Shown here: positions 1,315 to 41,058 of the stretch, piece by piece | How positions within the stretch are numbered: the first letter of the stretch is position 1 | How the letters are laid out: the number at the start of each line of letters is the position of its first letter | From: Fibrobacteria bacterium | GTDB taxonomy: Bacteria > Fibrobacterota > Fibrobacteria > UBA11236 | Length of the DNA stretch: 64,000 nucleotides | Direction of reading: 5' to 3' | Assembly (NCBI GenBank): GCA_050486505.1 | Contig: JBJHDK010000004.1 | Location: forward strand, 2,548 to 66,547 | The notes under the pieces: generated by a model | Told to the model about the DNA's origin: nothing | Databases searched by the model: none | Seen by the model: only the letters and a program-made list of their open reading frames with translations | Translations under genes and position numbers: made by a program

Positions 1315-1349
1315 CGGCCGTAACGGCCGTACAAAAAGCGACCGTCGCT
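1315..1349 (-). terminator. Putative intrinsic terminator downstream of nuoN (end of the nuoJKLMN unit)
   Basis: Read on the minus strand: hairpin AGCGACGGTCGCT (1337-1349, overlapping the nuoN TAG stop) followed by a T-run (plus-strand A-run 1333-1337). A second hairpin CGGCCGT-A-ACGGCCG lies at 1315-1329. Confidence 0.4.
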
Positions 1350-2796: not shown

Positions 2797-2820
2797 GGCG
2801 ATGCGTTCTTCCCGTGGCGG

Positions 2821-4347: not shown

Positions 4348-6251
4348 TCCATCCCCCAGAGGATGACCCAGGCCGTGAAGGCGAGGAAGAGGAGGCCGAG
4401 CGCGGCGTAGTGGTGCGCGCGACCGCTTTGCAGGCGGCGCACCCAGACGGACAGCAACGTGCCGAAGCGGCCCGTGACCGTCAAGATGCCGGTGAATACG
4501 CTCTCGAACCCGATCCGGAAAAGAAGGGACAGGCGCTGCAGCGGACGCGTCAGCGCGTATTCATACAGCTCGTCGAAGTAGAAGGTGTGGGTGAGCGGCC
4601 CCTTGTTTCCCAGGCGAAGGTGAGACAAGGCCGACAGCACGCGCTCACGTCGCGCAGGCACCGAGAAGACCATGAAGCAGGCGACGGCCAGCGAAATGTT
4701 CACCGCCAGCACCGGCAGCACGTGACCCCAATGCATCGCTTCATGAACAGCCGCGCCCGCCGAAACCCAGGCGGTCAGCAGGGCCGTCGAGCTGAAGAGC
4801 GCGAAGCCCACCGCCGCAACGGAGAGCACGAGCAACACGAAGCGAATGGCCGGGCTGCTCTCGTGGGGAACCTCATGCCCGGCATGCTGGGCATCGGCAG
4901 GCGCGGACAGATATCCGAGCAGGCGGAAGAAGTACAGCGCGGCGAGCGACTCGACAGCGAGCACGATCCAGTACACCACCGCTCCCGAGATCTCCCAGCC
5001 GAAACCCGCGAGCGTCGCGCCGCGGATCGATTCGAGCACGGCTTCCTTGGTGAAGAAGGCGGCGGAGAAATACGGAATGAAGCCGGCACCGCCGATGCAA
5101 CCGATCCACAGGGCCGCGCGCGTCACGGGCATGGTCTTGAGCACGCCGCCCAGCTTGCGGGCATCCTGCTCATGATGCGCGGAGAAGATGACGCTGCCGG
5201 CCCCGAGGAAGAGCAGTGCCTTGAAGAAGGCGTGGCCGAAGAGGTGCAGCAGCGCGGCGTGGGTCGAACCGGCGGCCAGCGCCAGGAACATCATGCCCAG
5301 GTTCGCGACGGTCGAATAGGCGAGGATTTTCTTGATGTCGTACTGGCTCACCGCCATGAACGCACCCACCACCAAGGTCACCAGCGCGCACAGGCCGATG
5401 ATCATGCGAACCTCGGGGAAGGCGGCATACAGCCAATCGAGCTGCATGATCAGGTACACACCCGCCGTGACCATGGTGGCGGCGTGGATGAGCGCGCTCA
5501 CCGGCGTGGGACCGGCCATCGCGTCGGCGAGCCACACGTGGAACGGAGCCTGCGCCGACTTGGCGAAGGCGCCGCCCAGCACGAGCAAGGCTCCCAGCCC
5601 GGCCAGACCTTCGCGTCCCTCGAGCAGCGCGGGACCGTTCTCCGAAAGCGAGGAGAGGGACACCGTGCCGAACGCCGCATAGAGCGTGAACACGCCCAGA
5701 AGGAAGAACAGATCGCCGACGCGATTCACAAAGAAGGCGCGGTAGGCTGCCAGCGGCACGTTCTTCTCGCGCCAGTAATGGCCGACCAGCAGGTACGAGC
5801 ACAGGCCCACGCCTTCCCAGCCGAGGAAGATGAGCACGAGGTTGTCGGCCAGCACGAGCACCAGCATCGCCGACACGAAGAGGTTCAGGCTCGCGAAGAA
5901 ACGGGACTGTTCGACGTCGGGCCGCATGTACCCCACCGAGTACCCCGTGATCAAGGTGCCGAAGAAGGTCACCATCAGGGTCATCGTCAGGCCGGGCGAA
6001 TCGAGGCGCAAGTCCATGCCGGCACGGAAGCCTTCGGTCGCCAGCCATGCGCCCAGATCGAGCGCCACCGCATCGGGGGATCCGAGCACGCCCGACGACA
6101 AGAATCCGAGGGCGACCAGGAACGAAAGGCCAACCGAAGCCGTGGCGAGCACCCCGACCGCGTTGTAGGAAAGACGGCCGCCCCATAGGGCGATCACCAG
6201 CGACGACAGGGCCGGCAATCCGGGAAGCGCAAGCAGCAGCACCGGGTTCAT
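4344..6251 (-). CDS. nuoL: NADH-quinone oxidoreductase subunit L
   Basis: 635-aa protein with NuoL/ND5 motifs (HAATMVTAGVYL, ILAYSTV…). It overlaps nuoM by 4 nt. Confidence 0.93.
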   Translation of the reverse strand: MNPVLLLALPGLPALSSLVIALWGGRLSYNAVGVLATASVGLSFLVALGFLSSGVLGSPDAVALDLGAWLATEGFRAGMDLRLDSPGLTMTLMVTFFGTLITGYSVGYMRPDVEQSRFFASLNLFVSAMLVLVLADNLVLIFLGWEGVGLCSYLLVGHYWREKNVPLAAYRAFFVNRVGDLFFLLGVFTLYAAFGTVSLSSLSENGPALLEGREGLAGLGALLVLGGAFAKSAQAPFHVWLADAMAGPTPVSALIHAATMVTAGVYLIMQLDWLYAAFPEVRMIIGLCALVTLVVGAFMAVSQYDIKKILAYSTVANLGMMFLALAAGSTHAALLHLFGHAFFKALLFLGAGSVIFSAHHEQDARKLGGVLKTMPVTRAALWIGCIGGAGFIPYFSAAFFTKEAVLESIRGATLAGFGWEISGAVVYWIVLAVESLAALYFFRLLGYLSAPADAQHAGHEVPHESSPAIRFVLLVLSVAAVGFALFSSTALLTAWVSAGAAVHEAMHWGHVLPVLAVNISLAVACFMVFSVPARRERVLSALSHLRLGNKGPLTHTFYFDELYEYALTRPLQRLSLLFRIGFESVFTGILTVTGRFGTLLSVWVRRLQSGRAHHYAALGLLFLAFTAWVILWGME

Positions 6252-27818: not shown

Positions 27819-30623
27819 ATGCTCAACGAAAAAAAGTTGGACGTCATTCTGGCGCTGACTGTATTCTTCGCCGCATTCTTCGTGTACCTGTCCACGATGG
27901 CACCCACAGTCTCCTGGTGGGACACCGGGGAATGGATCGCCTCGTCGTATGTCCTGGGAAACCCCCACCCCCCGGGGAATCCCCTTTTCACCTTGTTGGG
28001 ACGCGCCTTCGTCGTCGCCATGCCCATCTGGGAGAAAGCGGCGCGGATCAACTTCATCTCCGTGCTTACGATGGCCTTGAGCGCGATGGTCGCCTTCCTG
28101 TTCATCCTGAAGGCGATGCGCCTCATTTTCAACAAGGGAGGACTCAACCGCTTCGCCCTGTATTCGGGCGCCGTCATCGGTGGTTTCCTGGTCGCATTCT
28201 CCGACACGGTCTGGTTCAGCGCGGTGGAAACCGCCGCGTACAGCCCGGCGATGCTGATCGTGATGCTCACTGGCCTCCTGAGCCTGCATTGGTACGCGCG
28301 GCGCGGCACCCCGGCCGCTGACCGGCTTCTCCTTCTCATCGCCTATATCGGCTTTCTGGGCGTCGGCGTGCACATCTTCGCGTTCATCACCATCCCCGTG
28401 ATCGCGCTGTTCGTGCTCCTCGACAAGGAGTCCCGGTCCAACATCCCGCTCATCCTTGCGGGCGTGCTGCTGCTGTCCGTCATTTACGACATCGGCAACT
28501 TCGTCTTCTACGCCGCCGCCTCCCTCGCATTCTGCGTCACGGGGTATCTGGTTGCCCGTGCTCCCGAATGGCGTCGGCGCTGGTCGCTCGCGGGCTGGCT
28601 GAGCCTTGCCGCCATTCTCGGGTTCTCCACCTACATCTATGCCCCGGTCCGTTCCCACACCAATGTGTTGATCGACGAGGGCGCCCCCCGCACATGGCCC
28701 CTGCTGAAGGAGTACCTGGAACGCAAGCAGTACGGTTCCGAATCGATGCTGCGGCGAGCCTTCCATCGCCGCGCCCAGATCGGCCACCAGATCCTGATCC
28801 ACCCCCACATGGGCTACGGGGGCTATATGCTCTCGCAATACTTCCCCTGGAAGGTTGGCGATCGCAGCGAGGAAACCGTGGTCACCACCCGGAACCTCCT
28901 CGGCAAGGAGCTTGTCTTCCCGGAGCTGTACCGCTCGCTGCAGGGGCGAACCGGAACCCAAATCGGGCTTTTCCTGCTTCTGCAGATCCCCTTCATCTGG
29001 GGAGTCCTGCTCGCTTACCGCCGCAACCGAAAAATCGGCGCGTTCATCGGCGCGCTGTACGTCGCGACCAGTTACGGCCTCATCTTCTACCTCAACTTCG
29101 CGGATGGCACGCGCATGGAACTGCGCGACTACCAGTGGTGGAAGAGCACGGGATTCGACCCGAACCAGCAACCTCCCCCGGTTCACATGGAGGTGCGCGA
29201 ACGCGATTACTTCTTCACGCCCGGGTTCATGTACATGGGCATCCTGTTCGGCGTTTCGGCTGTCTTCCTGCTGAACTGGATCGCCTCCCGGCGCAGGTTG
29301 CTGCTGCGCCCGGCCGGCTTTGCCCTGATCGGCCTGGCCTTCGCTCTTCCCGTGTGGTCGAACTACCGTGAGCACGACCGCTCCCGCGACTTCGTGCCTT
29401 ACGACTACGCCTACAACCTGCTGAACTCCTGCCGTCCGAACTCGATCCTGTTCACCAACGGAGACAACGACACGTTCCCGCTCTGGTTCATGCAGCAGGT
29501 CGAGGGGATCCGTACCGACGTGCGCGTCGTGAACCTCTCGCTGGTGAACACCACCTGGTACATGCACCAGCTTTACGAGCACGAGCCGAAACTGAAAATC
29601 GGATTCACGCCCGAGGAGATCGAGAACCTCCGTCCGCAGCCGTGGCGCTTCCGCGGTCCGGTCGAGATCACGATTCCCGGAACGCAGATCCGCTACCAAC
29701 TGGACCCCCTCCCTTACCTTCGCGTTCAGGACATCATGGTGCTGCACATCGTGCAAAACAACTTCCCCGAGCGCCCTGTTCACTTCGCCGTCACCATCGG
29801 CGGCAACAACGCGATGGGCCTTGAGAGATTCACGGTCATGGAAGGCATGGTGTATACCCTCGTCGAAGAGCCGCGCGATCGAGAAATCGACGTCGTCGCC
29901 ACCGCCCGCCTCGTGGACTCTGTCTACCAGTTCCGCGGTCTCGGCGATCCCCGCGTGCACATCGACAAGACCACCGAGGGCTTGCTGACCAACTACTCCG
30001 CGACCAACTTCAGGCTGGCGGGGTGGGCACAGGACAGCCTCGAGAAAGTGATGCGGGAGCTGGAGCGCCTGCGCGGCCGCGATGGTCTGGGACGTGCCGA
30101 AACGGAGCGTCTTGCCGTCCTCGAAGAATCCCGCGAAGAAATGCTGGCCTTCGCCGAGCGCTACCTCGGGCTGAATGCGCGCATCCTCCCGGGTGAATGG
30201 CGCGTCCACTACTACCTGGGCCAGCTTTACCATCTCGCGGGCGAGCCCGGGAAGGCGGAATCGGCCTTCCGCGACGGCATGCGGACCCGCGGACCCGCGG
30301 CGAAGATTTTCGCCCTCAACCTGATGCAGCTCTTCATGGATGCCGGGCGAAGCGACGAGGCCAAGGCCGTGCTTTCCGAAATGACGGTGCGTTTTCCCGA
30401 GGATCTTGAAGTCGCATACCGTCTCGCGGAGATGTACCAGCAGGAAGGCGACTTCACCCGCGCGCGCGACATTCTTTCGAGATGGCTGCGGGCGAATCCC
30501 AATCACGAGTACGCGCGGCCCATCGAACAGCAGCTCCGCCAGCTGGAGTCGATGCCGCAGCGGGAGCTCCCGCCTCCGTCGCACGAGATCGAGGCTGAGA
30601 TTCCCGGCCTCCTTCCGGAGTAA
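27819..30623 (+). CDS. DUF2723 (TMEM260/TMTC-like, GT-C fold) polytopic membrane protein with C-terminal TPR repeats; putative lipid-linked-sugar-dependent (protein) glycosyltransferase
   Basis: 934-aa protein. The N-terminal 500-550 aa carry at least 10 TM helices and the DUF2723 hallmark VSWWDTGEW near the first loop. The C-terminal 300 aa form a TPR array (…YYLGQLYHLAGEPGKAESAFRDGM…AYRLAEMYQQEGDFTRARDIL…). It starts 9 nt after nusB. Confidence 0.75.
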   Translation: MLNEKKLDVILALTVFFAAFFVYLSTMAPTVSWWDTGEWIASSYVLGNPHPPGNPLFTLLGRAFVVAMPIWEKAARINFISVLTMALSAMVAFLFILKAMRLIFNKGGLNRFALYSGAVIGGFLVAFSDTVWFSAVETAAYSPAMLIVMLTGLLSLHWYARRGTPAADRLLLLIAYIGFLGVGVHIFAFITIPVIALFVLLDKESRSNIPLILAGVLLLSVIYDIGNFVFYAAASLAFCVTGYLVARAPEWRRRWSLAGWLSLAAILGFSTYIYAPVRSHTNVLIDEGAPRTWPLLKEYLERKQYGSESMLRRAFHRRAQIGHQILIHPHMGYGGYMLSQYFPWKVGDRSEETVVTTRNLLGKELVFPELYRSLQGRTGTQIGLFLLLQIPFIWGVLLAYRRNRKIGAFIGALYVATSYGLIFYLNFADGTRMELRDYQWWKSTGFDPNQQPPPVHMEVRERDYFFTPGFMYMGILFGVSAVFLLNWIASRRRLLLRPAGFALIGLAFALPVWSNYREHDRSRDFVPYDYAYNLLNSCRPNSILFTNGDNDTFPLWFMQQVEGIRTDVRVVNLSLVNTTWYMHQLYEHEPKLKIGFTPEEIENLRPQPWRFRGPVEITIPGTQIRYQLDPLPYLRVQDIMVLHIVQNNFPERPVHFAVTIGGNNAMGLERFTVMEGMVYTLVEEPRDREIDVVATARLVDSVYQFRGLGDPRVHIDKTTEGLLTNYSATNFRLAGWAQDSLEKVMRELERLRGRDGLGRAETERLAVLEESREEMLAFAERYLGLNARILPGEWRVHYYLGQLYHLAGEPGKAESAFRDGMRTRGPAAKIFALNLMQLFMDAGRSDEAKAVLSEMTVRFPEDLEVAYRLAEMYQQEGDFTRARDILSRWLRANPNHEYARPIEQQLRQLESMPQRELPPPSHEIEAEIPGLLPE

Positions 30624-31762
30624 TGCCCGTGCCGGAGGGGGCAACGCGTCCGCGCGTGCTGATCGTCAACTGGAGGGATATCCGCAACCCCGCGGCGGGC
30701 GGGGCGGAGGTTCACCTCCACGAGACGGCGCGCAGGCTCGTGCACAACGGCTTTGACGTCGTGCAATATGCGCACGCCTTCCCCGGCGGATCCGCCGAAG
30801 ACAATGTCGACGGCGTGGAAATCCACCGGAAGGGGAACGCGTTCCTCTTCAATTACACCGCCCTGCTCAATCTGCGCCGATGGGTGCGCCGCCACCGCAT
30901 CGATGTCGTGATCGACGACTCGAACAAGGTTTGTTTCCTGCTCCCGTTGGTTTCGCCGGTTCCGGTCGTGGCGCGCTTCCATCATCTTTTCGGACGTTCC
31001 ATTTTCCGGGAAGCCGGGTTTTTCCCCGCCCTGTACGTCTATCTCTTCGAGTGCATGATCGGCCCCGTGTATCGACGCACCCGCATCCTGACGGTATCGC
31101 CCAGTACACGCGCCGAATTGGAAGCCAAGGGCCTGCGGCGCATCACGATCGCGCTCAACGGCGTCGACCGCTCCGTGTACCGCGTGATTCCCGGAGCGGA
31201 GAAGATCCCTTTTCGCATCGTCCACATTGGGCGCATCAAGCGCTACAAGAAGCTCGACACCCTTCTTCACGCGCTGGTGCATGTGCGGCACGAGTTCCCG
31301 CAGGCGCATCTGGTGGTCGGAGGCGGGGGGAACGACCTCCCCGCGCTGCGCAGGCTTGCGCTCTCGCTCGGAATCGGGGATGCGGTCGATTTCCGGGGGT
31401 TCGTTTCCGAGGAAGAAAAGGTGCGGCTTTACAACGAGGCCCAGGTGTTCGTGAACGCCTCCCTGAAGGAGGGCTGGGGCCTGACGTCCGTCGAAGCCAA
31501 CGCCTGCGGGACACCCGTGGTCGCCACCGACGCGCCCGGTTTGCGCGACAGCGTGCGCCACGACGTGACCGGCCTGCTCGTGCCTCCCGATTCCCCGGAC
31601 AAGTTCGCTGCCGCAATCGTCAGCCTCCTCCGCGACCCGGAGCGGCTCTCGCGCATGCGGGAAGCGGCCATGGAGTGGGCTGCCGCGCACGATTGGGACC
31701 GCGCCGCCGGGGTTACGCGCGACGTCCTGCTTGAGGCGGTTTCCGGGAGATCCGCGCCATGA
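30623..31762 (+). CDS. Glycosyltransferase family 4 (GT-B, retaining)
   Basis: 379-aa protein with the GT4/EX7E-type C-terminal motif (…KEGWGLTSVEANACGTPVVATD…). Its start codon overlaps the upstream stop. Confidence 0.83.
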   Translation: MPVPEGATRPRVLIVNWRDIRNPAAGGAEVHLHETARRLVHNGFDVVQYAHAFPGGSAEDNVDGVEIHRKGNAFLFNYTALLNLRRWVRRHRIDVVIDDSNKVCFLLPLVSPVPVVARFHHLFGRSIFREAGFFPALYVYLFECMIGPVYRRTRILTVSPSTRAELEAKGLRRITIALNGVDRSVYRVIPGAEKIPFRIVHIGRIKRYKKLDTLLHALVHVRHEFPQAHLVVGGGGNDLPALRRLALSLGIGDAVDFRGFVSEEEKVRLYNEAQVFVNASLKEGWGLTSVEANACGTPVVATDAPGLRDSVRHDVTGLLVPPDSPDKFAAAIVSLLRDPERLSRMREAAMEWAAAHDWDRAAGVTRDVLLEAVSGRSAP

Positions 31763-32802
31763 CCACCGAAACCCCGAAGGAAGGCATGAAGCCGGAAGGG
31801 CGCCCCCCCGTCCCGGGCCGCTTCTGGTTCTGGACACGCGTCCTTGCCGTCATCGGCATCCTGTGGTGGGTGGTCGAGCGCAACGGCGGCGCACGCATCG
31901 CCCACGCGCTTCTCTCTGCTGATCCGCGTTGGGTCGCGGCGGCGGCGGCGGTCTTCTTTCTGTCGATCGTCCTCGCTGCCTGGCAATGGAGCCTGCTTCT
32001 GCGCATCCAGGGCATCCGTTTCGGATTCAAGGCATGTTTCAGGTCTTATTACTCGGGAATGTTCCTCAACAATTTTCTTCCCGGCACCGTCGGGGGAGAC
32101 GCCCTGCGCGTTTGGGACGTACATCGCCACGAAACTTCGCTGGGACGCGCCGCCGCTTCGACCCTGCTTGACCGCCTGATGGGTTTCAGTGCGCTGTCGT
32201 TCTTCTCCCTGATCGCGCTCGCCATCGAATTTCATCGGCAAGATCTCCCGCAGGGGTTGCTGGTGCACTTGTTGCAGGCGGTTGGGGCCGTTGCCGTCGC
32301 CTTTCTGTTTCTTCTTTTGCTGCTGCTCAGCAGGAGATTTTCGGGGGGACTCCACGCGATCATCCGTGCCCTCGGGTTGCAGCGACTCGGCAACATCCAC
32401 GCCAAGGTGCAAGATGCACTGATGGCCTACAAGGCTCGCTGGGGAAGCATCGGCATCGTCTTCCTGGTCGCCTGCACCGTCCAGCTGCTGCGAATCTCCG
32501 TGCACGCCTTTTGCGCCATGGCGCTCGGGCTTTCGCTCGCACCGGTGTTTTTCTTTTCGTTCATCCCCTTGATCGCGCTGACTGCCGTGCTCCCCTTGAA
32601 CGTGGGCGGTTGGGGCGTCCCGCAGGGGCTCGGCGCCTACCTTTACTCCCTGCCCGGAATCCTGGCCGTGTCGACGCTCGACCCGCGCGCCGCTGCGGCG
32701 GCGCTCGCCTTCCTTCCCACCGCCATCGGCATGGTGGTGATGCTCGGCGGGGGTATTTACCTTGTCTTCCGTCCCTCACAACCATCCCGGAAGGCCATGT
32801 GA
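31759..32802 (+). CDS. Flippase-like membrane protein, lysylphosphatidylglycerol-synthase TM-region family (UPF0104)
   Basis: 347-aa polytopic protein with the family's signature segment (…SYYSGMFLNNFLPGTVGGDALRVWD…). It overlaps the upstream GT4 gene by 4 nt. Confidence 0.72.
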   Translation: MTTETPKEGMKPEGRPPVPGRFWFWTRVLAVIGILWWVVERNGGARIAHALLSADPRWVAAAAAVFFLSIVLAAWQWSLLLRIQGIRFGFKACFRSYYSGMFLNNFLPGTVGGDALRVWDVHRHETSLGRAAASTLLDRLMGFSALSFFSLIALAIEFHRQDLPQGLLVHLLQAVGAVAVAFLFLLLLLLSRRFSGGLHAIIRALGLQRLGNIHAKVQDALMAYKARWGSIGIVFLVACTVQLLRISVHAFCAMALGLSLAPVFFFSFIPLIALTAVLPLNVGGWGVPQGLGAYLYSLPGILAVSTLDPRAAAAALAFLPTAIGMVVMLGGGIYLVFRPSQPSRKAM

Positions 32803-33752
32803 CGCGACTCAGTCTTGTTCTTCCCGCCTTCAACGAAGCGGAGAGCCTCCCCATCCTCCTGGAGGAGATCCGCTCGGTGTGCGAATCGGAGGGCATCGCC
32901 TACGAAGCCATCATCGTCGACGACGGCAGCACGGACGGCACCTTCGAGCGCGCCACCGAGGCCGCCTCCCGCGACTCGCGCGTCCATGCCGTGCGCTTCC
33001 GGCGCAACAGCGGCAAGGCGGCGGCGCTTGCCGAAGGGTTCCGGCGCGCGCAGGGCGAGTACGTCATCACCATGGACGCCGACCTGCAGGACAACCCGTC
33101 GGAAATTCCGGAACTGATCCGAATGCTGGAAGCCGGCTCCGACATGGTTTCAGGCTGGAAGAAAGTACGCCACGATCCCTGGCACAAGACTTTGCCCTCG
33201 AAGCTGTTCAACGCGGTCACGGCCATGGCTTCGGGCCTGCCCCTGCACGACTTCAATTGCGGGCTCAAGGCCTATCGCCGCGAGGTGGTGGAAAGCATCG
33301 AGCTCTACGGCGAGTTTCACCGGTACATCCCCGTGCTTGCACACTGGGACGGGTTCCGTGTCGAGGAGAAAGTCGTCGAGCATCGGGCACGGCGTTACGG
33401 AAACTCCAAATACGGTTGGGCGCGCCTGAGCAACGGATTGTTCGACCTGATCACCCTGCTCTTTCTTCACCGCTACACGCGCCGCCCGCTGCACCTGTTC
33501 GGCTTCGTCGGCATGTTGTTCACCGCGCTGGGGGTGGCGATTCTCGCCGGTTTCGGCATCAGCTGGCTCGCAACCGGAGCGCTGCACGTGCGGCCCCTGA
33601 TGCTCGGCGGCGTCGCCTTCATGCTGGTGGGCGTTCAATTCGTTTCGCTCGGACTGCTGGGGGAGCTGGTGAACCAGCGCTTCGCCGCGTCATCCCCCCC
33701 GCCCCCCGTCGCCCGCGAGACCCCTGGAGCGCCGCCGGCCCGGTCCCGATGA
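32799..33752 (+). CDS. GT2 polyprenol-phosphate glycosyltransferase (ArnC/GtrB/DPM1-like) with C-terminal TM anchor
   Basis: GTG start at 32799, overlapping the upstream stop (ATGTGA). The N-terminus VTRLSLVLPAFNEAESL…IIVDDGSTDGT…MDADLQDNP is followed by two C-terminal TM helices, as is typical of ArnC/GtrB. Confidence 0.83.
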   Translation: MTRLSLVLPAFNEAESLPILLEEIRSVCESEGIAYEAIIVDDGSTDGTFERATEAASRDSRVHAVRFRRNSGKAAALAEGFRRAQGEYVITMDADLQDNPSEIPELIRMLEAGSDMVSGWKKVRHDPWHKTLPSKLFNAVTAMASGLPLHDFNCGLKAYRREVVESIELYGEFHRYIPVLAHWDGFRVEEKVVEHRARRYGNSKYGWARLSNGLFDLITLLFLHRYTRRPLHLFGFVGMLFTALGVAILAGFGISWLATGALHVRPLMLGGVAFMLVGVQFVSLGLLGELVNQRFAASSPPPPVARETPGAPPARSR

Positions 33753-34591
33753 AAATCTTGGTCGCGGGCTGCAACGGCCTGCTCGGCCAGAACCTGCTCC
33801 GTTGCGCTCCGGCCGGGACGGAACTTCACGGACTGGCCCGGCATCCCGCGGCCCGGCTTCCGGGTCACCTGGCCTCCTTCCATTCCCGCGACATCACCGC
33901 CCCGGAAACATGGGACTTCGTTCGAGCGACGATCCGTCCCGAGCGGATCCTCAATGTCGCCGCGATCACCGATGTCGATGGCTGCGAACGTGCCCCTGTT
34001 GCATGTTCGCGCGTCAACCATGACGCCGTGAGCCTGATGACCGGAACGGGAATCCCGGTCGTGCAGCTTTCAACCGATTACGTGTTCGACGGAAGCTCCG
34101 GCCCCTACCGGGAGGAGGATGCAACGAATCCCCCCAATGCCTACGGCCGCATCAAGCTCGCCTCGGAGGCTCTTGCACTCGAGGGTTCTCCCGCCGGACT
34201 GGTGGTGCGCACCATGTGGGTTTGGGGCGAAGGAACGGGGACGAAGAAAAGCTTTCCGGCCTTTGTGGAGGAGACCTTGCGGGGTGGCGGCGTCGTGCGC
34301 GCCGTGACGGACCAGACCGGAAACCCGACGTGCGCGGAGGGCCTGGCGCGGGCGATCTGGGCCTTGGTGACGGGGGGGTGCTCCGGCGTCTATCACGTTG
34401 CGGGGAGCACTCTGCTGAGCCGCTTCGACTGGGCCCGGCACATCGCGGAATCGCGAGGGCTCGATGCATCCCGGATCGTTGCCGTAACCACGGCGGAGCT
34501 CGGACTCGCCGCACCACGGCCCTTGCGGTCGGGACTGGTCAGCGACAAGCTGTTCCGCGACACGGGGACCAGGTTGCAGGGCATCGAATAG
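33749..34591 (+). CDS. NAD(P)-dependent reductase, RmlD (dTDP-4-dehydrorhamnose reductase)-like
   Basis: MKILVAGCNGLLGQNL… Rossmann start and a STDYVFDG…Y…K catalytic-region pattern. ATG 33749 overlaps the upstream stop (ATGA). The track's 609-aa ORF is a frame fusion with the antisense strand and is rejected. Confidence 0.72.
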   Translation: MKILVAGCNGLLGQNLLRCAPAGTELHGLARHPAARLPGHLASFHSRDITAPETWDFVRATIRPERILNVAAITDVDGCERAPVACSRVNHDAVSLMTGTGIPVVQLSTDYVFDGSSGPYREEDATNPPNAYGRIKLASEALALEGSPAGLVVRTMWVWGEGTGTKKSFPAFVEETLRGGGVVRAVTDQTGNPTCAEGLARAIWALVTGGCSGVYHVAGSTLLSRFDWARHIAESRGLDASRIVAVTTAELGLAAPRPLRSGLVSDKLFRDTGTRLQGIE

Positions 34592-34690
34592 TCCCGTCGC
34601 CCCCAGTGCCCCCTGGCCGTCGCGGAATCGCGGACGATCCCCATCTTTCGCCTGCTATATTAGGCCCTCACGTCATCAGACCGGACTTCC

Positions 34691-35398
34691 ATGCCCAGAA
34701 CCCTCATCATCATCCCGACCTACAACGAGATCGAGAATCTCCCGCTGATGATTCCCGCTCTGGAGGCGCTTGACCTCGGACTCGAGGTTCTCGTCGTCGA
34801 CGATGGTTCGCCCGACGGCACCGGGGCCTGGGTCAGGGAGCAACAGGCCTCGAAGCCGCACCTGCACCTGATCGAGCGCTCCGGCAAACAGGGGCTCGGA
34901 TCCGCGTACGTCGCGGGGTTCAAATATGCGCTGGAGCGCGATTATGAACTCATCTTTGAAATGGACGCGGATTTCTCGCACGACCCGGCCTACATCAAGG
35001 ATTTTCTCGCTGCGATCCACGACGCGGACCTCGTCATCGGCAGCCGCTACATCAACGGCGTCAATGTCGTGAACTGGCCCATGAGCCGCCTGCTTCTGAG
35101 CTACTTCGCCAACATGTACGCACGGCTGGTGACCGGGCTTCCGGTCCGCGACGCCACGGGCGGATTCAAGTGCTTCCGCGCCGACGCCCTGCGCAAGCTC
35201 GACCTCGACCGCATCAGCTCGGGCGGCTACTCTTTCCAGATCGAAGTGAACTACAAGCTGTGGAAGAAGGGTTGCCGCATCCGCGAAATCCCCATCATCT
35301 TCAAGGACCGCACGTTGGGTGCCTCCAAAATGTCGGGGAAAATCATCAAGGAAGCCCTGTTCCTGCTGGTGAAGCTGCGCCTTGGCGGAGGAAAGTGA
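34691..35398 (+). CDS. Polyprenol monophospho-sugar synthase (dolichol-phosphate mannosyltransferase Dpm1-like, GT2), soluble form
   Basis: MPRTLIIIPTYNEIENL…VVDDGSPDGT…EMDADFSHDP…GGFKCFR. It aligns closely with Dpm1/Ppm1 catalytic domains. 235 aa with no TM segment. Confidence 0.85.
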   Translation: MPRTLIIIPTYNEIENLPLMIPALEALDLGLEVLVVDDGSPDGTGAWVREQQASKPHLHLIERSGKQGLGSAYVAGFKYALERDYELIFEMDADFSHDPAYIKDFLAAIHDADLVIGSRYINGVNVVNWPMSRLLLSYFANMYARLVTGLPVRDATGGFKCFRADALRKLDLDRISSGGYSFQIEVNYKLWKKGCRIREIPIIFKDRTLGASKMSGKIIKEALFLLVKLRLGGGK

Positions 35399-37137
35399 GG
35401 ACGGGGGACCAACCCTTCGACTCCACTTCGGTAAACTCAGTGCGATACCCCCAGGACAAGAGCCAGGATGCGGGAGACGAGGAGGGACAAGGAGCACCCC
35501 CAACCTCTTCCCCCCTGCCTACTGCCTACCCAAGGGGCGTCTCTGTCATCATCGTCTCCTACAACGTCCGCGAATTTCTTGATGCCTGCCTGCAGAGCAT
35601 CCGCCACGCTGCGGCGGGTTTCGACGGAAAAATCGAGGTCATCGTGTTCGACAACGACTCGCACGATGGCACTGTATCGCTGCTGCGGCCACGTTGGCCC
35701 GATGTCACCTGGATCGCTTCGGATCGCAACCTCGGCTTCGGATCAGGGTGCAACCGCGGTGCCGCAGTGGCCACGCAAGACCTGCTGCTGTTTCTCAACC
35801 CCGACACCTTGGTTCGCGAAGACACCTTCCGGGTCATGCGCGACTTTTTCTCGGGACGCGGCGACGTGGGGGCGGCCGGCTGCAAGATCGTGAACCGCGA
35901 CGGCAGCCTGCAGGCCGCAGCGAAGCGCAGTTTCCCCTCCCCGCGCGTAGCGGCCTACAAATTCATGGGCCTCGGCAGTCTTTTCCCGAAAAGCCGTGTT
36001 TTCGGCCGCTACAACCTGACCTATCTCGACGAGAACGAGACTCATGAGGTCGACGCGATCTCGGGTTCCTTCATGTGCATGCGCGCCGAAGTGTTCCGCA
36101 AGGCGGGAGGCTTTGACGAGGACTTTTTCATGTACGGGGAAGATCTGGACCTCTGCTTCCGGATCAAATTGTTGGGGCTGCGCAACTACTACCACCCGGC
36201 CACTCAGGTGGTCCACTTCAAGGGCGAGAGCGCGAAAAGCCGTCCCTTCCGGTCCTTCCTGTATTTCCACGAGGCCATGATCCTCTTCGCCCGCAAGCAT
36301 CTTGAACTGCACGCGCTGCCGGGATTCCTGCTGAATGCCGGCATCATCGTCCTGGCCGCGGCCAATTTCATCTCTTCGCGCTTCCGCAAGTGGAGCCGCT
36401 GGCTCGCCGATCTCGTCGTGGTCAACGGAGTGCTCGCTGCGACAGCCTACGCCTACCACAACATCCTCGACATCCGCCACGTCGCGACAGAGTACCCCGG
36501 CATGTATCTGCTGTCGCATTTACTCGTTTCCCTCGCGGTATTGCTTCCCTTCGCCTACATCGGCGAGTACGGCCGTCGCGTCGCACCTCCGCGCGCGGTT
36601 CTGTTCGCAGCCGCAGGCGGATTTCTTGCCTTCTTTTCCTTGAGCTACTTCCTCCACGAGCACGCCTATTCAAGGGTCGTCTTCGGAGTCACGGGTCTCC
36701 TGAGCGTCGCCCTGCTTTCGGGATGGCGCTGGGTTCGGTCGCACGGAGGCAAGCTTTTCCGAAAGCTCATGGACGGTTCCCGGCGCGTCGCCATTCTCGG
36801 AACCGGGGCGCGGGCCCTCGCGCTCGCGGAACTCATCCACTCGGATCGCGTGGAGGGTTATGAATGCGTCGGCTTCATCCATTTTCCAAAGGGCCCGGCG
36901 CCTCCCGAGGTGCGGGCAAGCGTGATCGGCGAAGTCGATTCCCTGCCGGGGTTGTCGAGAAAACTCGACCTCGCCGGAGTCATTGTTGCATTGGAGGGCG
37001 ACGCATACCCCGCGGCACTCGAAATCCTCGCGCAACAGGGCGCGCGAGCACTTGAGGTCAAGGTGCTGCTGGGGCCTCCGGAACCGGGGAAATTCAGCCT
37101 GATCGACCTTAATTTCGCGGATTCCCCGAAACAGTGA
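35395..37137 (+). CDS. Multidomain protein: N-terminal GT2 glycosyltransferase, central polytopic membrane domain, C-terminal CoA-binding-like domain
   Basis: Probable GTG start at 35395 with a GGAGG site 7 nt upstream, overlapping the Dpm1-like stop. GT2 core (VSVIIVSYNV…FDNDSHDGT…GFGSGCNRG…MYGEDLDLCFR) is followed by 5-6 TM helices, then a VAILGTGARALALAELI…ECVGFI…GV domain resembling the N-terminal CoA-binding/Rossmann domain of polysaccharide-biosynthesis sugar transferases. Confidence 0.65.
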   Translation: MRTGDQPFDSTSVNSVRYPQDKSQDAGDEEGQGAPPTSSPLPTAYPRGVSVIIVSYNVREFLDACLQSIRHAAAGFDGKIEVIVFDNDSHDGTVSLLRPRWPDVTWIASDRNLGFGSGCNRGAAVATQDLLLFLNPDTLVREDTFRVMRDFFSGRGDVGAAGCKIVNRDGSLQAAAKRSFPSPRVAAYKFMGLGSLFPKSRVFGRYNLTYLDENETHEVDAISGSFMCMRAEVFRKAGGFDEDFFMYGEDLDLCFRIKLLGLRNYYHPATQVVHFKGESAKSRPFRSFLYFHEAMILFARKHLELHALPGFLLNAGIIVLAAANFISSRFRKWSRWLADLVVVNGVLAATAYAYHNILDIRHVATEYPGMYLLSHLLVSLAVLLPFAYIGEYGRRVAPPRAVLFAAAGGFLAFFSLSYFLHEHAYSRVVFGVTGLLSVALLSGWRWVRSHGGKLFRKLMDGSRRVAILGTGARALALAELIHSDRVEGYECVGFIHFPKGPAPPEVRASVIGEVDSLPGLSRKLDLAGVIVALEGDAYPAALEILAQQGARALEVKVLLGPPEPGKFSLIDLNFADSPKQ

Positions 37138-37231: not shown

Positions 37232-38188
37232 ATGCCCGTACCCAAGGGGCCCCATCTCGAGTTCGAACAGCCGGTGGTCGAGCTGGCGATGAAAATCGAG
37301 GATCTCCTCAAGTCAGGTGAAGTGACAGGGTCCGATGTCAAGGCTCTCCAGGTCAAAAAGGAAGCCCTCCAGAAGAAAATCGCGGCGAAACTCTCGCCCT
37401 GGAACCGGATCGAACTGGCCCGGAGAGCGGGCCGCCCATTCACCCTGGATTACGTTCACAGCATCTTCGCCGACTTCGTCGAACTGCATGGCGATCGCCG
37501 CTTCGGGGATGACCCGGCCATGGTTTGCGGTCTCGCGCGCCTCGGTGAGCAAAGTGTCATGATCATCGGCCAGCAAAAGGGCCGCGACACCAAGGAAAGC
37601 ATCCGTCGCAACTTCGGCATGGCTCACCCCGAGGGATATCGCAAGGCCCTGCGCTGCATGAAGCTCGCGGAGAAATTCCGCATCCCGGTGATATCATTCA
37701 TCGACACTCCCGGGGCCTATCCCGGCCTCGGGGCGGAAGAACGAGGGCAGGGTGAGGCCATCGCCCTCAATCTCATGGAAATGGCCGTGCTTCGCGTCCC
37801 CATCATCGCCGTGGTCATCGGGGAAGGAGCCAGCGGGGGTGCACTCGGGATCGGCGTCGGTGACCGCCTGCTCATGCTTGAGAACGCATGGTACGGCGTC
37901 ATCTCTCCGGAATCGTGCAGCGCCATCCTTTGGGGCGACAGCAGCAAGAAACAGGAACTGAGCGGCACCATGAAAATCACTGCTGGGGACCTCAAGAACC
38001 TCAACGTGATCGATCGCATCATCCCCGAGCCCTTGGGCGGAGCCCACTGGGATCCCGATGCGATGTGCGGCACCTTGAAGCAAGTGCTCACGGAAGAGCT
38101 CTCTCTCCTGCGTGATGCCGACATCGAAGCTCTTGTTGAAAAGCGCGGAGCGAAATATGCCGCCATCGCCCAGTTCGCGGAGAAATAG
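37232..38188 (+). CDS. accA: Acetyl-CoA carboxylase carboxyltransferase subunit alpha
   Basis: Canonical AccA sequence (…LDFEQPVVELAMKIEDL…, …FIDTPGAYPGLGAEERGQGEAIA…). Confidence 0.93.
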   Translation: MPVPKGPHLEFEQPVVELAMKIEDLLKSGEVTGSDVKALQVKKEALQKKIAAKLSPWNRIELARRAGRPFTLDYVHSIFADFVELHGDRRFGDDPAMVCGLARLGEQSVMIIGQQKGRDTKESIRRNFGMAHPEGYRKALRCMKLAEKFRIPVISFIDTPGAYPGLGAEERGQGEAIALNLMEMAVLRVPIIAVVIGEGASGGALGIGVGDRLLMLENAWYGVISPESCSAILWGDSSKKQELSGTMKITAGDLKNLNVIDRIIPEPLGGAHWDPDAMCGTLKQVLTEELSLLRDADIEALVEKRGAKYAAIAQFAEK

Positions 38189-38196
38189 GAGGCGTC

Positions 38197-38445
38197 ATGC
38201 TCGACGGGAAACTTCTTGAAATCCTGTGTTGCCCCGAAACACGGCAAGACCTTGCGGTCGCCGGCGACGAGGTCATTTCAGCGCTCAACGCTCGCGTGGA
38301 CGCCGGAACGCTGACAAACCGCGTGGGCGAGCCTGTCCGCGAAAAACTCGATGGCGGCTTGGTACGCGCCGACGGCAAATTTCTCTACCCCGTCCGCGAA
38401 GACATTCCCGTGATGCTCATCGACGAAGCCATCCCGCTCTCCTGA
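38197..38445 (+). CDS. Trm112 family protein (UPF0434)
   Basis: 82-aa protein with LLEILCCPETRQDL…YPVREDIPVMLIDEA, the Trm112/YcaR zinc-finger-like signature. Confidence 0.72.
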   Translation: MLDGKLLEILCCPETRQDLAVAGDEVISALNARVDAGTLTNRVGEPVREKLDGGLVRADGKFLYPVREDIPVMLIDEAIPLS

Positions 38446-38473
38446 AGCCGGCCACGGCAACGCATCCACAGGC

Positions 38474-39148
38474 ATGACACGTCCAGCATCGACTCCGGAT
38501 CAGCACGAGCCTCCAGGAATGGTGGCAGGGTTCGCCCGCACCGCGGAAGCCCTGCACCTGGACGGCGATACCGATGCCGCGCTGCAGTTGCTTGCGGAGG
38601 GAATCCGCCTGCGGCCCCGCGATGTGACGGGGCGTCTCGTGCTCGCGCGCGTCTGCCTCGACAGCGGACGGCGGGGCGAAGCCGTCGAGTGGCTTGAGAG
38701 TGTGTTGCGTGCTGATCCGGACTGCCCGGCGGCTCTCGTACAATTGGCCGAATTGCGCGCCGATGCGGAAACTGCGAGGTACAGAAAACGGGCCCTTGCG
38801 CGCGAGCCTTGGGACGAATCCGAAAGTCTTTCCACGAACACGCCGAATGTCGACCAGACACCCGCGAGCCCCGAACTCGAGTCGGCTCCCGCACCGATAC
38901 CCCATGTTCTACCCGTGCAAGAGGACGAGGAGCTTCCCGAAGACGAAGATCCCGCAAATCTTCCGCACATTGCCACGGCCACTCTGGCCGAGATATATTT
39001 CCAGCAGGGCCTGAAAGAGCAGGCAGCGCAAATTTACCGCCTGATTTTGGAGCGGCATCCAGGGGACGCTTCCGCGAGGGAACGCCTTGAGGTGATTGAA
39101 ACTTCCATTGAGGGGCCCGCTCCGCGGGCAACGGACGAAAACGGTTAG
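38474..39148 (+). CDS. TPR repeat-containing protein
   Basis: 224-aa protein with TPR-like N-terminal helices and an acidic middle section. It sits between the Trm112-like gene and accB. Confidence 0.55.
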   Translation: MTRPASTPDQHEPPGMVAGFARTAEALHLDGDTDAALQLLAEGIRLRPRDVTGRLVLARVCLDSGRRGEAVEWLESVLRADPDCPAALVQLAELRADAETARYRKRALAREPWDESESLSTNTPNVDQTPASPELESAPAPIPHVLPVQEDEELPEDEDPANLPHIATATLAEIYFQQGLKEQAAQIYRLILERHPGDASARERLEVIETSIEGPAPRATDENG

Positions 39149-39174
39149 CTCCGGTTTCTGAAGGGGATTCCAGC

Positions 39175-39654
39175 ATGCAACTTTCCGATGTATCGAACCT
39201 GGTCAAATTGCTCGACAAGAGCGGACTCGCCGAGCTGAGGTTCAGCGACGGAACGTTCAACCTGGTCCTCAAGAAAGAATCCCGCCACGCCCCCGTTGCC
39301 CAGATCGTTCACGCAGCCGCCCCGGCGGCACCTGCGGCCGCACCGGCCGCCCCCACTGCGACTCCCGTGTCTTCGGCTCCGCCCCCCGCGCCCGAAAAAG
39401 CCTCCGGGCCCGCACTCAAGGAAATCACTTCACCGATGGTCGGCACCTTTTATGCCAGCTCGTCTCCGGGAAGCCCCGCCTTCGCGCAGGTCGGCACGGT
39501 GGTGAAGCCAGGCCAGGTGCTCTGCATCATCGAAGCCATGAAGATCATGAACGAAATCGAATCCGACATCTCGGGCGAAATCGTCGAGGTCTGCGTTTCG
39601 AACGAGACCCCGGTCGAGTACGGCACCGTGCTCTACCGCGTCCGCCCCGCGTAG
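39175..39654 (+). CDS. accB: Acetyl-CoA carboxylase biotin carboxyl carrier protein
   Basis: Ala/Pro-rich linker followed by a biotinyl domain carrying the EAMKIMNEIE motif. Confidence 0.9.
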   Translation: MQLSDVSNLVKLLDKSGLAELRFSDGTFNLVLKKESRHAPVAQIVHAAAPAAPAAAPAAPTATPVSSAPPPAPEKASGPALKEITSPMVGTFYASSSPGSPAFAQVGTVVKPGQVLCIIEAMKIMNEIESDISGEIVEVCVSNETPVEYGTVLYRVRPA

Positions 39655-39666
39655 GGCGATTCATTT

Positions 39667-41058
39667 TTGCCCCGCAAGGGCGCACGCGAACGGAGAATCA
39701 CGTTGTTCAAGAAAATCCTGGTCGCCAATCGCGGCGAGATCGCCCTGCGCGTCATCCGCACCTGCAAGGAGATGGGCATCGCCACGGTGGCCCTGCACTC
39801 CACCGCCGACACGCACTCGATGCACGTGTACCAGGCCGAGGAAGACATCTGCATCGGTCCCCCGAACAGCAAGCAAAGTTATCTGAACATGCGGCAGATC
39901 CTTTCCGCTGCCGAGTTGACCAACGCAGATGCCGTGCACCCGGGCTACGGGTTTCTCTCCGAGAATGCCCGCTTCGCGGAAGTCTGCCGCGACAACAAGC
40001 TGGTGTTCATCGGCCCGACTCCCGAAGTGATCCGCAGCATGGGCGACAAGGCCCAGGCCAAGGCCACCATGCGCAAGGCGAAGGTGCCCGTCATTCCCGG
40101 CTCGCAAGGCCTGGTGAAGTCGCTGGATGATGCTCTCAGCGAGGCATCTAAGGTCGGGTATCCCGTGATCGTGAAAGCTTCGGCCGGCGGCGGCGGGCGT
40201 GGCATGCGCATGGCGCGCAACGCAGAGGAACTGAAAAAGCTTTATCCCGTGGCCGCTTCCGAGGCGCAGGCATGCTTCGGCAATAACGACCTTTACTTGG
40301 AACGCTTCTTCACCGAGCCGCGCCACGTCGAAATCCAGCTCATCGGCGACCAGCACGGCAACATGGTTCACTTGGGTGAGCGCGACTGCTCGGTGCAGCG
40401 CCGCCACCAGAAGCTGATCGAGGAGAGCCCCAGCCCCGCCGTCACGCCCGAGATCCGCAAGCGGATGGGCGAGATCGCCGCCAAGGGCGCGCTCGAAGCG
40501 GGCTACCACAACGCCGGCACCATCGAGTTCCTCTACGATACCGACAACTCGTTCTACTTCATGGAAATGAACACGCGCATCCAGGTCGAGCATCCGGTAA
40601 CCGAGTGCGTCACGGGCATCGACCTCATCCGCGCGCAGGTCATGGTCGCGGCGGGCGAGAAGCTTCCCTTCACGCAGGACGACGTGCGCTTCGACGGGCA
40701 CGCGATCGAGTGCCGCATCAATGCCGAGGATCCGTTCAACGACTTCCGGCCCTCGCCCGGGACCCTGCAAACCTTCCATCTTCCCGGCGGGCCCGGCGTG
40801 CGCGTGGACACCCACTGCTACAGCGGCTATACCGTGCCCCCCCATTACGACAGCATGATCGCCAAGCTGATCGTGCACGCTCCGACCCGCAAGGAGGCGA
40901 TCGCGCGGATGCTGCGCGCGCTCGACGAGTTCGTGATCGAGGGTGTGAAGACCACGATCCCGCTGCACAAGCGCATCCTGAAGCATCCGCAGTTCGCCAA
41001 GGGCGAGTACACGACCAAATTCCTCGAGCTGTTCCCGGAGCTGCTGGTCGGGGAGTGA
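39667..41058 (+). CDS. accC: Acetyl-CoA carboxylase biotin carboxylase subunit
   Basis: ATP-grasp biotin carboxylase (…[23 protein letters not shown]…, …[17 protein letters not shown]…). The true start is probably TTG 39703 ([12 protein letters not shown]). Confidence 0.93.

Follow-up and report, generated by a model that had tools for sequence, protein, structure and literature searches.

A glycosyltransferase family 2 protein joined to the non-catalytic half of a large phosphoglycosyl transferase in Fibrobacteria and related phyla

The window analysed here, a stretch of 64,000 nucleotides from a Fibrobacteria bacterium (GenBank assembly GCA_050486505.1, contig JBJHDK010000004.1, positions 2,548 to 66,547 of the forward strand), carries at 35395..37137 on the plus strand a gene (the TGA stop at 37135-37137 included) whose 580-aa product joins a glycosyltransferase family 2 (GT2) domain, a four-helix transmembrane (TM) bundle and a Rossmann-like domain of unknown function (DUF). 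The last four hydrophobic helices of this protein, referred to below as the target, and its DUF, matched by Pfam PF13727 ('CoA_binding_3'), are one inherited module, homologous to the N-terminal half of the large monotopic phosphoglycosyl transferases (Lg-PGTs), and the target belongs to a large, conserved family of the Fibrobacteres-Chlorobi-Bacteroidetes (FCB) superphylum that is as yet uncharacterised, and is not an oddity of a single genome. With a probability that we put at roughly 0.6, the target would be a non-processive GT2 that is anchored in the membrane and glycosylates a polyprenyl-linked acceptor, the former PGT module being reused for anchoring, oligomerisation or nucleotide sensing.

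Sequence and fold alike place the target in the GT2 family. Its GT-A domain, at aa 46-283 (35530..36243, +), is matched by PF00535 (aa 50-210, 69.7 bits against a Pfam cutoff of 23.3) and by PF13641 (aa 46-280, 65.7 bits against a cutoff of 27), and the motifs FDNDS (D86, N87, S89) and GEDLDL (E249, D250, D252) are invariant in 55 relatives, together with N135-P136-D137, H274 and K276. Across phyla this domain shows 53-86% identity. The part that each motif plays in nucleotide and metal binding or as catalytic base is assigned from what is generally known of GT2 enzymes. In an AlphaFold2 (AF2) model built on the family alignment, which has an overall predicted local distance difference test score (pLDDT) of 84, aa 46-283 reach a pLDDT of ~90 with the GT-A domain modelled at 48-274, and the top 50 Foldseek matches of the whole model in the PDB are all GT-A enzymes (E down to 2.5e-13). 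The initial annotation had read an N-terminal GT2 domain with FDNDS and EDLDL motifs, and the profile scores and the invariance of these motifs bear this out. The closest likeness in catalytic type is to the non-processive GT2 proteins of the COG1216 type (rhamnosyltransferase TIGR01556, MftF and GlfT1), with which the target shares the GT-A fold and the D-N-x-S, N-P-D and F-x-Y-G-E-D-x-D-L motifs; profile matches to MftF, rhamnosyltransferase and GlfT1 are weak and lie far under the equivalog cutoffs (e.g. 69 against 280 and 35 against 200), and a likeness to WbbL/RfbF is assumed. Unlike the target, the COG1216-type enzymes are soluble or peripheral and lack a PGT-derived membrane module.

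The C-terminal module consists of four TM helices at aa 333-357, 368-388, 399-422 and 427-450 (36391..36744, +), recognised by homology to the Lg-PGT four-helix bundle, and of the DUF at aa 453-575 (36751..37119, +). PF13727 matches aa 400-545 with 35.1 bits against a Pfam cutoff of 25, the AF2 model has an alpha/beta domain at 463-571 with a pLDDT of ~90, and the DUF contains a Gly-rich loop of the form G-x-G-x-x-A (VAILGTGARA) in which G469 is invariant. Profiles for whole Lg-PGTs match this same region by their N-terminal halves: TIGR03025 (EPS polyprenyl glycosylphosphotransferase, E 1e-17) aligns its positions 2-221 of 445 with aa 338-558, and TIGR03023 (WcaJ, E 1.9e-14) aligns positions 2-226 of a model of length 453 with the same residues. 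Scores stay below the full-length NCBIfam cutoffs for TIGR03025 (64.5/295.55), TIGR03023 (53.8/410.75) and TIGR03022 (23.8/403). A profile built from 55 members of the family matches residues 66-289 of Salmonella WbaP (8t53_A) with an E of 2e-10. Since Foldseek with the whole model yields only GT-A enzymes, aa 300-580 were modelled separately (pLDDT 90.9), and the best match of this model is WbaP 8t53, with 3nkl also matched (TMt 0.65-0.67). The latter entry is deposited as UDP-D-quinovosamine 4-dehydrogenase, and its 123-residue chain is presumably a PglF/WbpM-type N-terminal domain. The proposal of a WbaP/PglF-type domain resembling CoA-binding domains at the C-terminus therefore survives profile searches, being supported by PF13727, NCBIfam and both structural matches, whilst the idea of a membrane domain and a C-terminal domain as separate parts has to be given up: four of the five helices and the DUF form a single Lg-PGT-derived module.

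In WbaP this module of four-helix bundle and DUF supplies the greater part of the dimer interface and is where UMP, UDP and UTP bind, and allosteric regulation has been proposed; the isolated WbaP DUF is stabilised by the same three nucleotides, the CoA label is described by the authors as purely computational, and the module occurs in PglF-like dehydratases too (PMC10942596). Because of these roles of the WbaP module, and because the target retains the Gly-rich loop with G469, a role as nucleotide sensor or oligomerisation surface is plausible by analogy.

Five hydrophobic helices are modelled by AF2, at 307-329, 333-357, 368-388, 399-422 and 427-450, four of which are also flagged by a hydropathy scan; this agrees with an earlier estimate of five to six TM helices. 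Ahead of the bundle lie an amphipathic juxtamembrane helix (aa 284-302) and the extra hydrophobic helix 'TM0' (aa 307-329), together at 36244..36381 (+) and delimited by AF2, hydropathy and K/R counts. Helix 307-329 has no Lg-PGT counterpart, and TIGR03025 homology begins only at aa 338. The K/R-rich loops of the target are 284-306, 329-336, 389-398 and 451-462, and over 55 family sequences the mean number of K+R is 3.8 before helix 307-329, 2.7 at 329-336, 1.8 at 389-398 and 2.5 after 450, with a low of 0.4 at 358-367 and a value of 1.1 at 423-427 (invariant R427 included). We infer that the bundle is N-in/C-in as in WbaP, with the GT2 domain and the DUF both cytoplasmic. Helix 307-329 is probably re-entrant or interfacial, since the K/R charge would place both of its ends in the cytoplasm.

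The catalytic half of the PGT is missing. No PF02397 (Bac_transf) match was found by Pfam in the target, which stops right after the strand SLIDLNF; in real PGTs this strand precedes the re-entrant helix, and the motif KRxFD would begin next. Short forms end 2-6 residues past the conserved (L/V)(I/V)D(L/V)N(F/Y) strand. A phmmer search of all six-frame ORFs of the 64-kb window with three PGT-remnant queries, which is a weak test, found no PGT-like ORF elsewhere.

Longer relatives at ~40% identity, of 650-730 aa, do match PF02397, at profile positions 94-175 of 179 only. When one of these (P0094) is aligned with WbaP 8t53, its residues 349-580 correspond to chain residues 129-358 and its residues 591-670 to 439-518, so that ten residues (580-591) replace about eighty of WbaP (358-439). 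The PGT remnant of the long relatives thus carries an internal deletion of ~75 residues, which, in an alignment of eight relatives to five canonical Lg-PGTs encoded by neighbouring genes, removes GPVxY...KFRSM...DPR...LDE(I/L)PQ, the stretch that we take, from established work on PglC and WbaP, to hold the Asp-Glu catalytic dyad. What they keep is the re-entrant-helix motif KRxFD and the C-terminal PGxTGxxQ...Y..N.S...D block; because both ends of the domain are retained, the remnant is derived from a complete PGT domain. Using a hidden Markov model of canonical catalytic domains, an intact PGT domain was found in 0/270 family members and a remnant in 70. Extensions past the DUF fall into two length modes, one of 0-59 aa (116 members) and one of 100-220 aa (86 members). 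In a neighbour-joining tree the 96-member short-form clade that includes the target is monophyletic and smaller short-form groups are dispersed among the long forms, requiring at least 8 changes; rooting of this tree is unreliable, the midpoint root falling between the oversampled Fibrobacteria clade and the rest, and the state at the root is uninformative. The sequences read as a series from an Lg-PGT fused to a GT2, through a gutted PGT, to no PGT at all. Judged by its sequence, PGT activity of the target is excluded. It is new that the C-terminal part is a PGT scaffold which has lost its catalytic domain, and that relatives still hold intermediates without the dyad.

The same layout is found across the FCB superphylum, in Fibrobacterota, Ignavibacteriota, Bacteroidota, Neomarinimicrobiota, Calditrichota and Kryptonia. 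Identity to the target is 53-58% in GTDB Fibrobacteria genomes and 31-40% in Fibrobacter succinogenes, Ignavibacteria, Melioribacter, Kryptonia, Neomarinimicrobiota, Calditrichota, Balneolaceae, Bacteroidales, Flavobacteriales and Chitinophagales. A search with the target returned 3,854 cluster representatives (50% identity) at E <= 1e-30, a figure in which ordinary GT2-only proteins are counted, the best 150 all having E <= 1e-70, and a search from a Bacteroidales member gave at least 8,000 matches. Source annotations are all generic ('GT2 family glycosyltransferase' or 'O-antigen biosynthesis protein'). The search for the same fusion in other genomes that had been suggested thus finds it across FCB phyla, and of the 'unusual three-part fusion' described initially the three domains and their layout are real, whilst its rarity is not, thousands of FCB proteins being of this kind. 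Some representatives of the family, P0187 (589 aa) and P0220 (651 aa), have two tandem target-type GT2 domains in place of the membrane module.

The gene itself is well defined. One uninterrupted in-frame ORF spans 35170 to the TGA at 37135-37137, and a ribosome-binding site GGAGG (35387-35391) lies 3 nt before a GTG start at 35395-35397 (feature 35387..35397, +, read from sequence). This GTG and the TGA of the upstream gene (35396-35398) overlap as GTGA, as had been anticipated from the sequence, and the public gene call for an identical protein (P0001, 580 aa) also starts at 35395; apart from it, GTG 35440 offers the sole in-frame start ahead of the GT2 domain. The first 45 residues (35395..35529, +) form a low-complexity extension of variable length among relatives, with a pLDDT of 35-51 in AF2, 7-30% identity to relatives where more than a few residues align and a weaker codon-position signal. 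Since this extension is unconserved, of low complexity and predicted to be disordered, the architecture does not depend on the exact start. Third-position GC content (GC3) is 0.71-0.79 in all three domain segments and is kept to the end, and about 90/120 of the listed homologue clusters (45-73% identity) share the length class and the domain set. On account of the GC3 signal and of these clusters of equal length and domains a frameshift or a chance ORF is excluded, and the single ORF of the initial annotation is upheld. Opposite the target and the adjacent gene run two long antisense ORFs, at 35743-36519 (-, 258 aa) and 34676-35503 (-, 275 aa), which have the look of high-GC shadows, the GC3 signal and all homology lying in the plus-strand frame.

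The target is the last of seven co-directional genes at 27819-37137 (+), which are joined by 1-4-nt overlaps except for one 99-nt gap. The six others, all on the plus strand and assigned with Pfam, encode a TMEM260-like GT-C glycosyltransferase with TPR (27819-30623), a GT4 (30623-31762), an LPG_synthase_TM (PF03706) membrane protein (31759-32802), a GtrB-like GT2 with two TM helices (32799-33752), an RmlD-like reductase (33749-34591) and, directly 5' of the target, a 235-aa polyprenyl-phosphate glycosyltransferase without TM helices (34691..35398; PF00535, 100.8 bits) that resembles dolichyl-phosphate mannose synthase (DPMS) and Dpm1. The PF03706 membrane protein is of a type that we take to be a candidate flippase, the flippase role being assumed. 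The 235-aa protein matches Pyrococcus DPMS (5mlz) with an E of 2.4e-31 over the catalytic domain only, and no hydrophobic segment was seen in it save a marginal hydropathy peak at residues 17-18 within the catalytic domain. Pyrococcus DPMS has four C-terminal TM helices, and human DPM1, which is without them, needs DPM3 as an anchor. The coupling of the target to a DPMS-like enzyme in a block reminiscent of O-mannosylation is likewise new.

Gene order in the block is the same in the relatives L001, L002, L004 and L005, and it recurs in other Fibrobacteria genomes. The 4-nt overlap between the DPMS-like gene and the target recurs in L001, and gaps of 7-18 nt stand in its place in L003 and L004; most loci from Fibrobacteria, Ignavibacteria, Neomarinimicrobiota, Kryptonia and Calditrichota have the DPMS-like gene directly 5' of the target. 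In the last four of these groups accA completes a conserved trio with the two genes, in which stops and starts often overlap; the trio is not retained in the Bacteroidia, Flavobacteriales or Chitinophagales loci. In the window the gene for the alpha subunit of the acetyl-CoA carboxylase carboxyltransferase, accA (37232..38188, +), was identified by a phmmer match to relatives' ORFs annotated ACCA/Carboxyl_trans, and it follows the target stop after 94 nt that hold no PGT-like frame and in which a terminator scan found no terminator-like site.

Ignavibacteria, Kryptonia and some Bacteroidota also encode an intact Lg-PGT of ~465 aa, with PF13727 and a full PF02397, one or two genes 5' of the pair of DPMS-like gene and target homologue. 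Such an intact Lg-PGT upstream of the target homologue is seen in L003 (6616-8010) and in L007, L009-L013, L018, L020, L021, L023, L032, L033, L044, L049 and L066; the fused scaffold may have come from this enzyme or may have it as a partner. The Balneolaceae loci L057 and L067 are rearranged: the target homologue stands first, then an intact Lg-PGT, and after it come the DPMS-like gene and accA. Further downstream of the target in the window, the region 37232-41058 (+) holds, after accA, a Trm112-like ORF (38197-38445), a TPR protein (38474-39148), accB (39175-39654) and accC (39667-41058); a T2SSE-type ATPase stands between accB and accC in L001 and L004 and is absent in the window. Three Proton_antipo_M (nuoL/M/N-type) genes at 1348-6251 (-) coincide with a positive plus-strand AT skew at 2-8 kb, an ordinary compositional effect.

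The target is not an Lg-PGT, a bifunctional PGT (Bi-PGT), a PglF-type dehydratase or a processive synthase. With the Lg-PGTs (WbaP, WcaJ, CpsE, EpsZ; TIGR03025/03023/03022; 8t53) it shares the order of bundle and then PF13727 and the same predicted N-in/C-in topology, but it lacks the re-entrant helix and PF02397, so that it cannot synthesise undecaprenyl-diphosphate-linked sugars, and it has 300 residues of GT2 and an extra hydrophobic helix before the bundle as well as a shortened form of the WbaP dimerisation beta-hairpin. In Bi-PGTs a glycosyltransferase or acetyltransferase domain is fused to the monotopic PGT (monoPGT) core (PMC11626204, PMC10942596). The target family resembles them in having a glycosyltransferase and PGT-family sequence in one polypeptide, and the 650-730-aa relatives match PF02397; whereas a Bi-PGT has a working core by definition, the core in the target family is internally deleted or absent and none of the 270 members has it intact. 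The PglF/WbpM/CapD-type UDP-sugar 4,6-dehydratases demonstrate that the module is portable to a catalytic domain other than a PGT (PMC10942596), and the fold of the target DUF matches 3nkl; there, however, the module is N-terminal to a dehydratase of the short-chain dehydrogenase/reductase (SDR) superfamily, in the target it is C-terminal to a GT-A domain, and Pfam finds no PF02719 or other SDR domain in the target. A further parallel is with eukaryotic and archaeal DPMS and GT-C O-mannosylation (DPM1/DPM3, PMT/TMTC/TMEM260), the block having DPMS-like, GtrB-like, PF03706 and TMEM260-like GT-C genes; this likeness is one of gene context, and the target has no eukaryotic counterpart.

The PGT literature describes small, large and bifunctional monoPGTs and the occurrence of the module in PglF-like dehydratases (PMC10942596, PMC11626204). 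A GT2 with the module and without a working PGT core finds no mention in the accessible part of that literature, a scope to which the 2021 fusion-network analysis (O'Toole et al.) does not belong, and literature searches for PF13727 with glycosyltransferase, for DUF2723 and for TMEM260 in Bacteroid* returned nothing relevant. The initial remark that this arrangement is absent from characterised enzymes is consistent with the searchable literature, in which none was found.

In the mechanism that we propose, the target would act as an inverting GT-A glycosyltransferase of family 2, the C-terminal two-fifths of which is the non-catalytic half of an Lg-PGT. With an NDP-sugar and a divalent cation it would add one sugar, at the inner membrane face, to an acceptor linked to polyprenyl phosphate or polyprenyl diphosphate; the RmlD-like reductase encoded in the operon makes a 6-deoxyhexose a possible donor. 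The DPMS-like enzyme encoded upstream and the block's TMEM260-like GT-C would belong to the same pathway. The former PGT module would do no chemistry, serving as an anchor, possibly as an oligomerisation surface and possibly as a uridine-nucleotide sensor, and it may tether the DPMS-like partner, which is without TM helices.

A number of points weigh against this reading. The bundle and DUF diverge much faster than the GT2 domain (17-27% identity between phyla as against 53-58%), and PF13727 is undetected by Pfam in the Fibrobacter succinogenes homologue, in one directly tested Bacteroidota homologue and in most listed Lentimicrobium-clade relatives, so that in some lineages the DUF may be on its way to becoming no more than a spacer. 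In the short forms ~10 residues are missing that we take to be the first strand of the WbaP dimerisation beta-hairpin (hairpin range as in PMC10942596, with the tag offset of 8t53_A assumed), which makes WbaP-like dimerisation uncertain for them. Were all five helices to cross the membrane, it would separate the GT2 domain from the DUF, a possibility addressed through the charge distribution. The link to the DPMS-like enzyme is one of synteny only and is absent in Bacteroidia, Flavobacteriales and Chitinophagales loci, and no Rosetta-stone fusion of the DPMS-like enzyme with the target was found, the long L043 and L047 ORFs being stop-to-stop artefacts and P0187 and P0220, with their two GT2 domains, being duplications of the target-type GT2. 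For every member of the family the reading draws on sequence and predicted structure.

One alternative is that the module mainly recruits the DPMS-like synthase to the membrane, as DPM3 does for human DPM1, with the GT2 still active; where an Lg-PGT is adjacent, the module might instead pair with this live enzyme via the DUF. In both cases a hetero-complex would channel consecutive lipid-linked steps. The match of the DPMS-like protein to Pyrococcus DPMS over the catalytic domain only, without a TM helix, fits this idea, as do its translational coupling to the target in the window and in L001, its adjacency in most non-Bacteroidia loci, the intact Lg-PGT one or two genes upstream in Ignavibacteria and Kryptonia, and the dimerisation of WbaP via its DUF (PMC10942596). 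The lack of fusion proteins, the separation from the DPMS-like gene in Bacteroidia, Flavobacteriales and Chitinophagales and the shortened hairpin strand of the short forms count against it, however, and we hold recruitment as the main role of the module to be unlikely, if worth serious thought. Distinctly less probable is a processive synthase of the cellulose, hyaluronan or PNAG type, in which the GT-A domain would polymerise and the TM helices would form an export channel. PF13632 (Glyco_trans_2_3) does match aa 132-414 in Pfam, there are weak N-terminal matches to PgaC/IcaA, and hyaluronan synthases appear in the Foldseek list with 474-503 aligned columns, but these alignments have an rmsd of 17-19 A, the PgaC_IcaA profile scores 40.5 bits against a cutoff of 422.3, and no QxxRW motif was found anywhere in the protein with the expression [QR]xxRW. 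Because this motif is absent, and because the TM helices (333-450) are homologous to the PGT four-helix bundle and not to synthase channels, the target is predicted to be non-processive.

The Pfam name CoA_binding_3, and the position of accA directly downstream and sometimes overlapping across several phyla, could instead point to a DUF that genuinely binds CoA or acyl-CoA and links the glycosyltransferase to fatty-acid and malonyl-CoA metabolism, for example in the synthesis of acylated glycolipids. This we regard as very improbable: the WbaP DUF is stabilised by uridine nucleotides and its CoA label is computational (PMC10942596), adjacency to accA is lost in Fibrobacter and most Bacteroidota loci, and the block holds no acyltransferase. 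An artefactual gene or a pseudogene, in which an error of sequencing or assembly, or else a recent mutation, had cut short a bifunctional GT-PGT gene whose true product runs on into a PGT domain, would be in keeping with the longer relatives that have a C-terminal PF02397 match, but is scarcely credible in view of the 96 short forms, which are monophyletic, 45-73% identical to the target and share its end position, of the 94 nt to accA without a PGT-like frame, of the GC3 signal kept to the end, and of the lack of the catalytic dyad in the long relatives too.

A more speculative reading, which we think quite doubtful, takes the FCB-wide pair of DPMS-like synthase and GT2 as a PGT-independent system of initiation and extension, and the block as candidate machinery for the hexose-deoxyhexose core found in protein O-glycosylation of the Bacteroidota type. 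Synthesis would begin with a hexose on polyprenyl monophosphate, made by the DPMS-like enzyme; to this the GT2, seated on its former PGT scaffold, would add a further sugar, for instance a 6-deoxyhexose that the RmlD-like reductase helps to provide. Once flipped, the product would be passed on to periplasmic proteins by the TMEM260-like GT-C with TPR. The machinery for this conserved core is reported as unidentified (PMC12871550).

Two catalytic partners of the bundle and DUF are on record to date, namely the PGT core and the PglF-type dehydratases, and the GT2 is a third, placed on the other side of the module. The role of the module is debated, dimerisation and UMP sensing both having been proposed, and a series that leads from a gutted PGT to none, with the module kept under selection, is a possible natural experiment on the function that the module has apart from PGT catalysis. 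For annotation, the labels 'PF02397-containing' and 'CoA_binding_3-containing' in FCB genomes can denote catalytically dead PGTs. The 53-58% identity of the GT2 domain across phyla and the conserved order with the DPMS-like gene point to a conserved, unstudied step of envelope glycosylation in Fibrobacterota, Ignavibacteriota and Bacteroidota.

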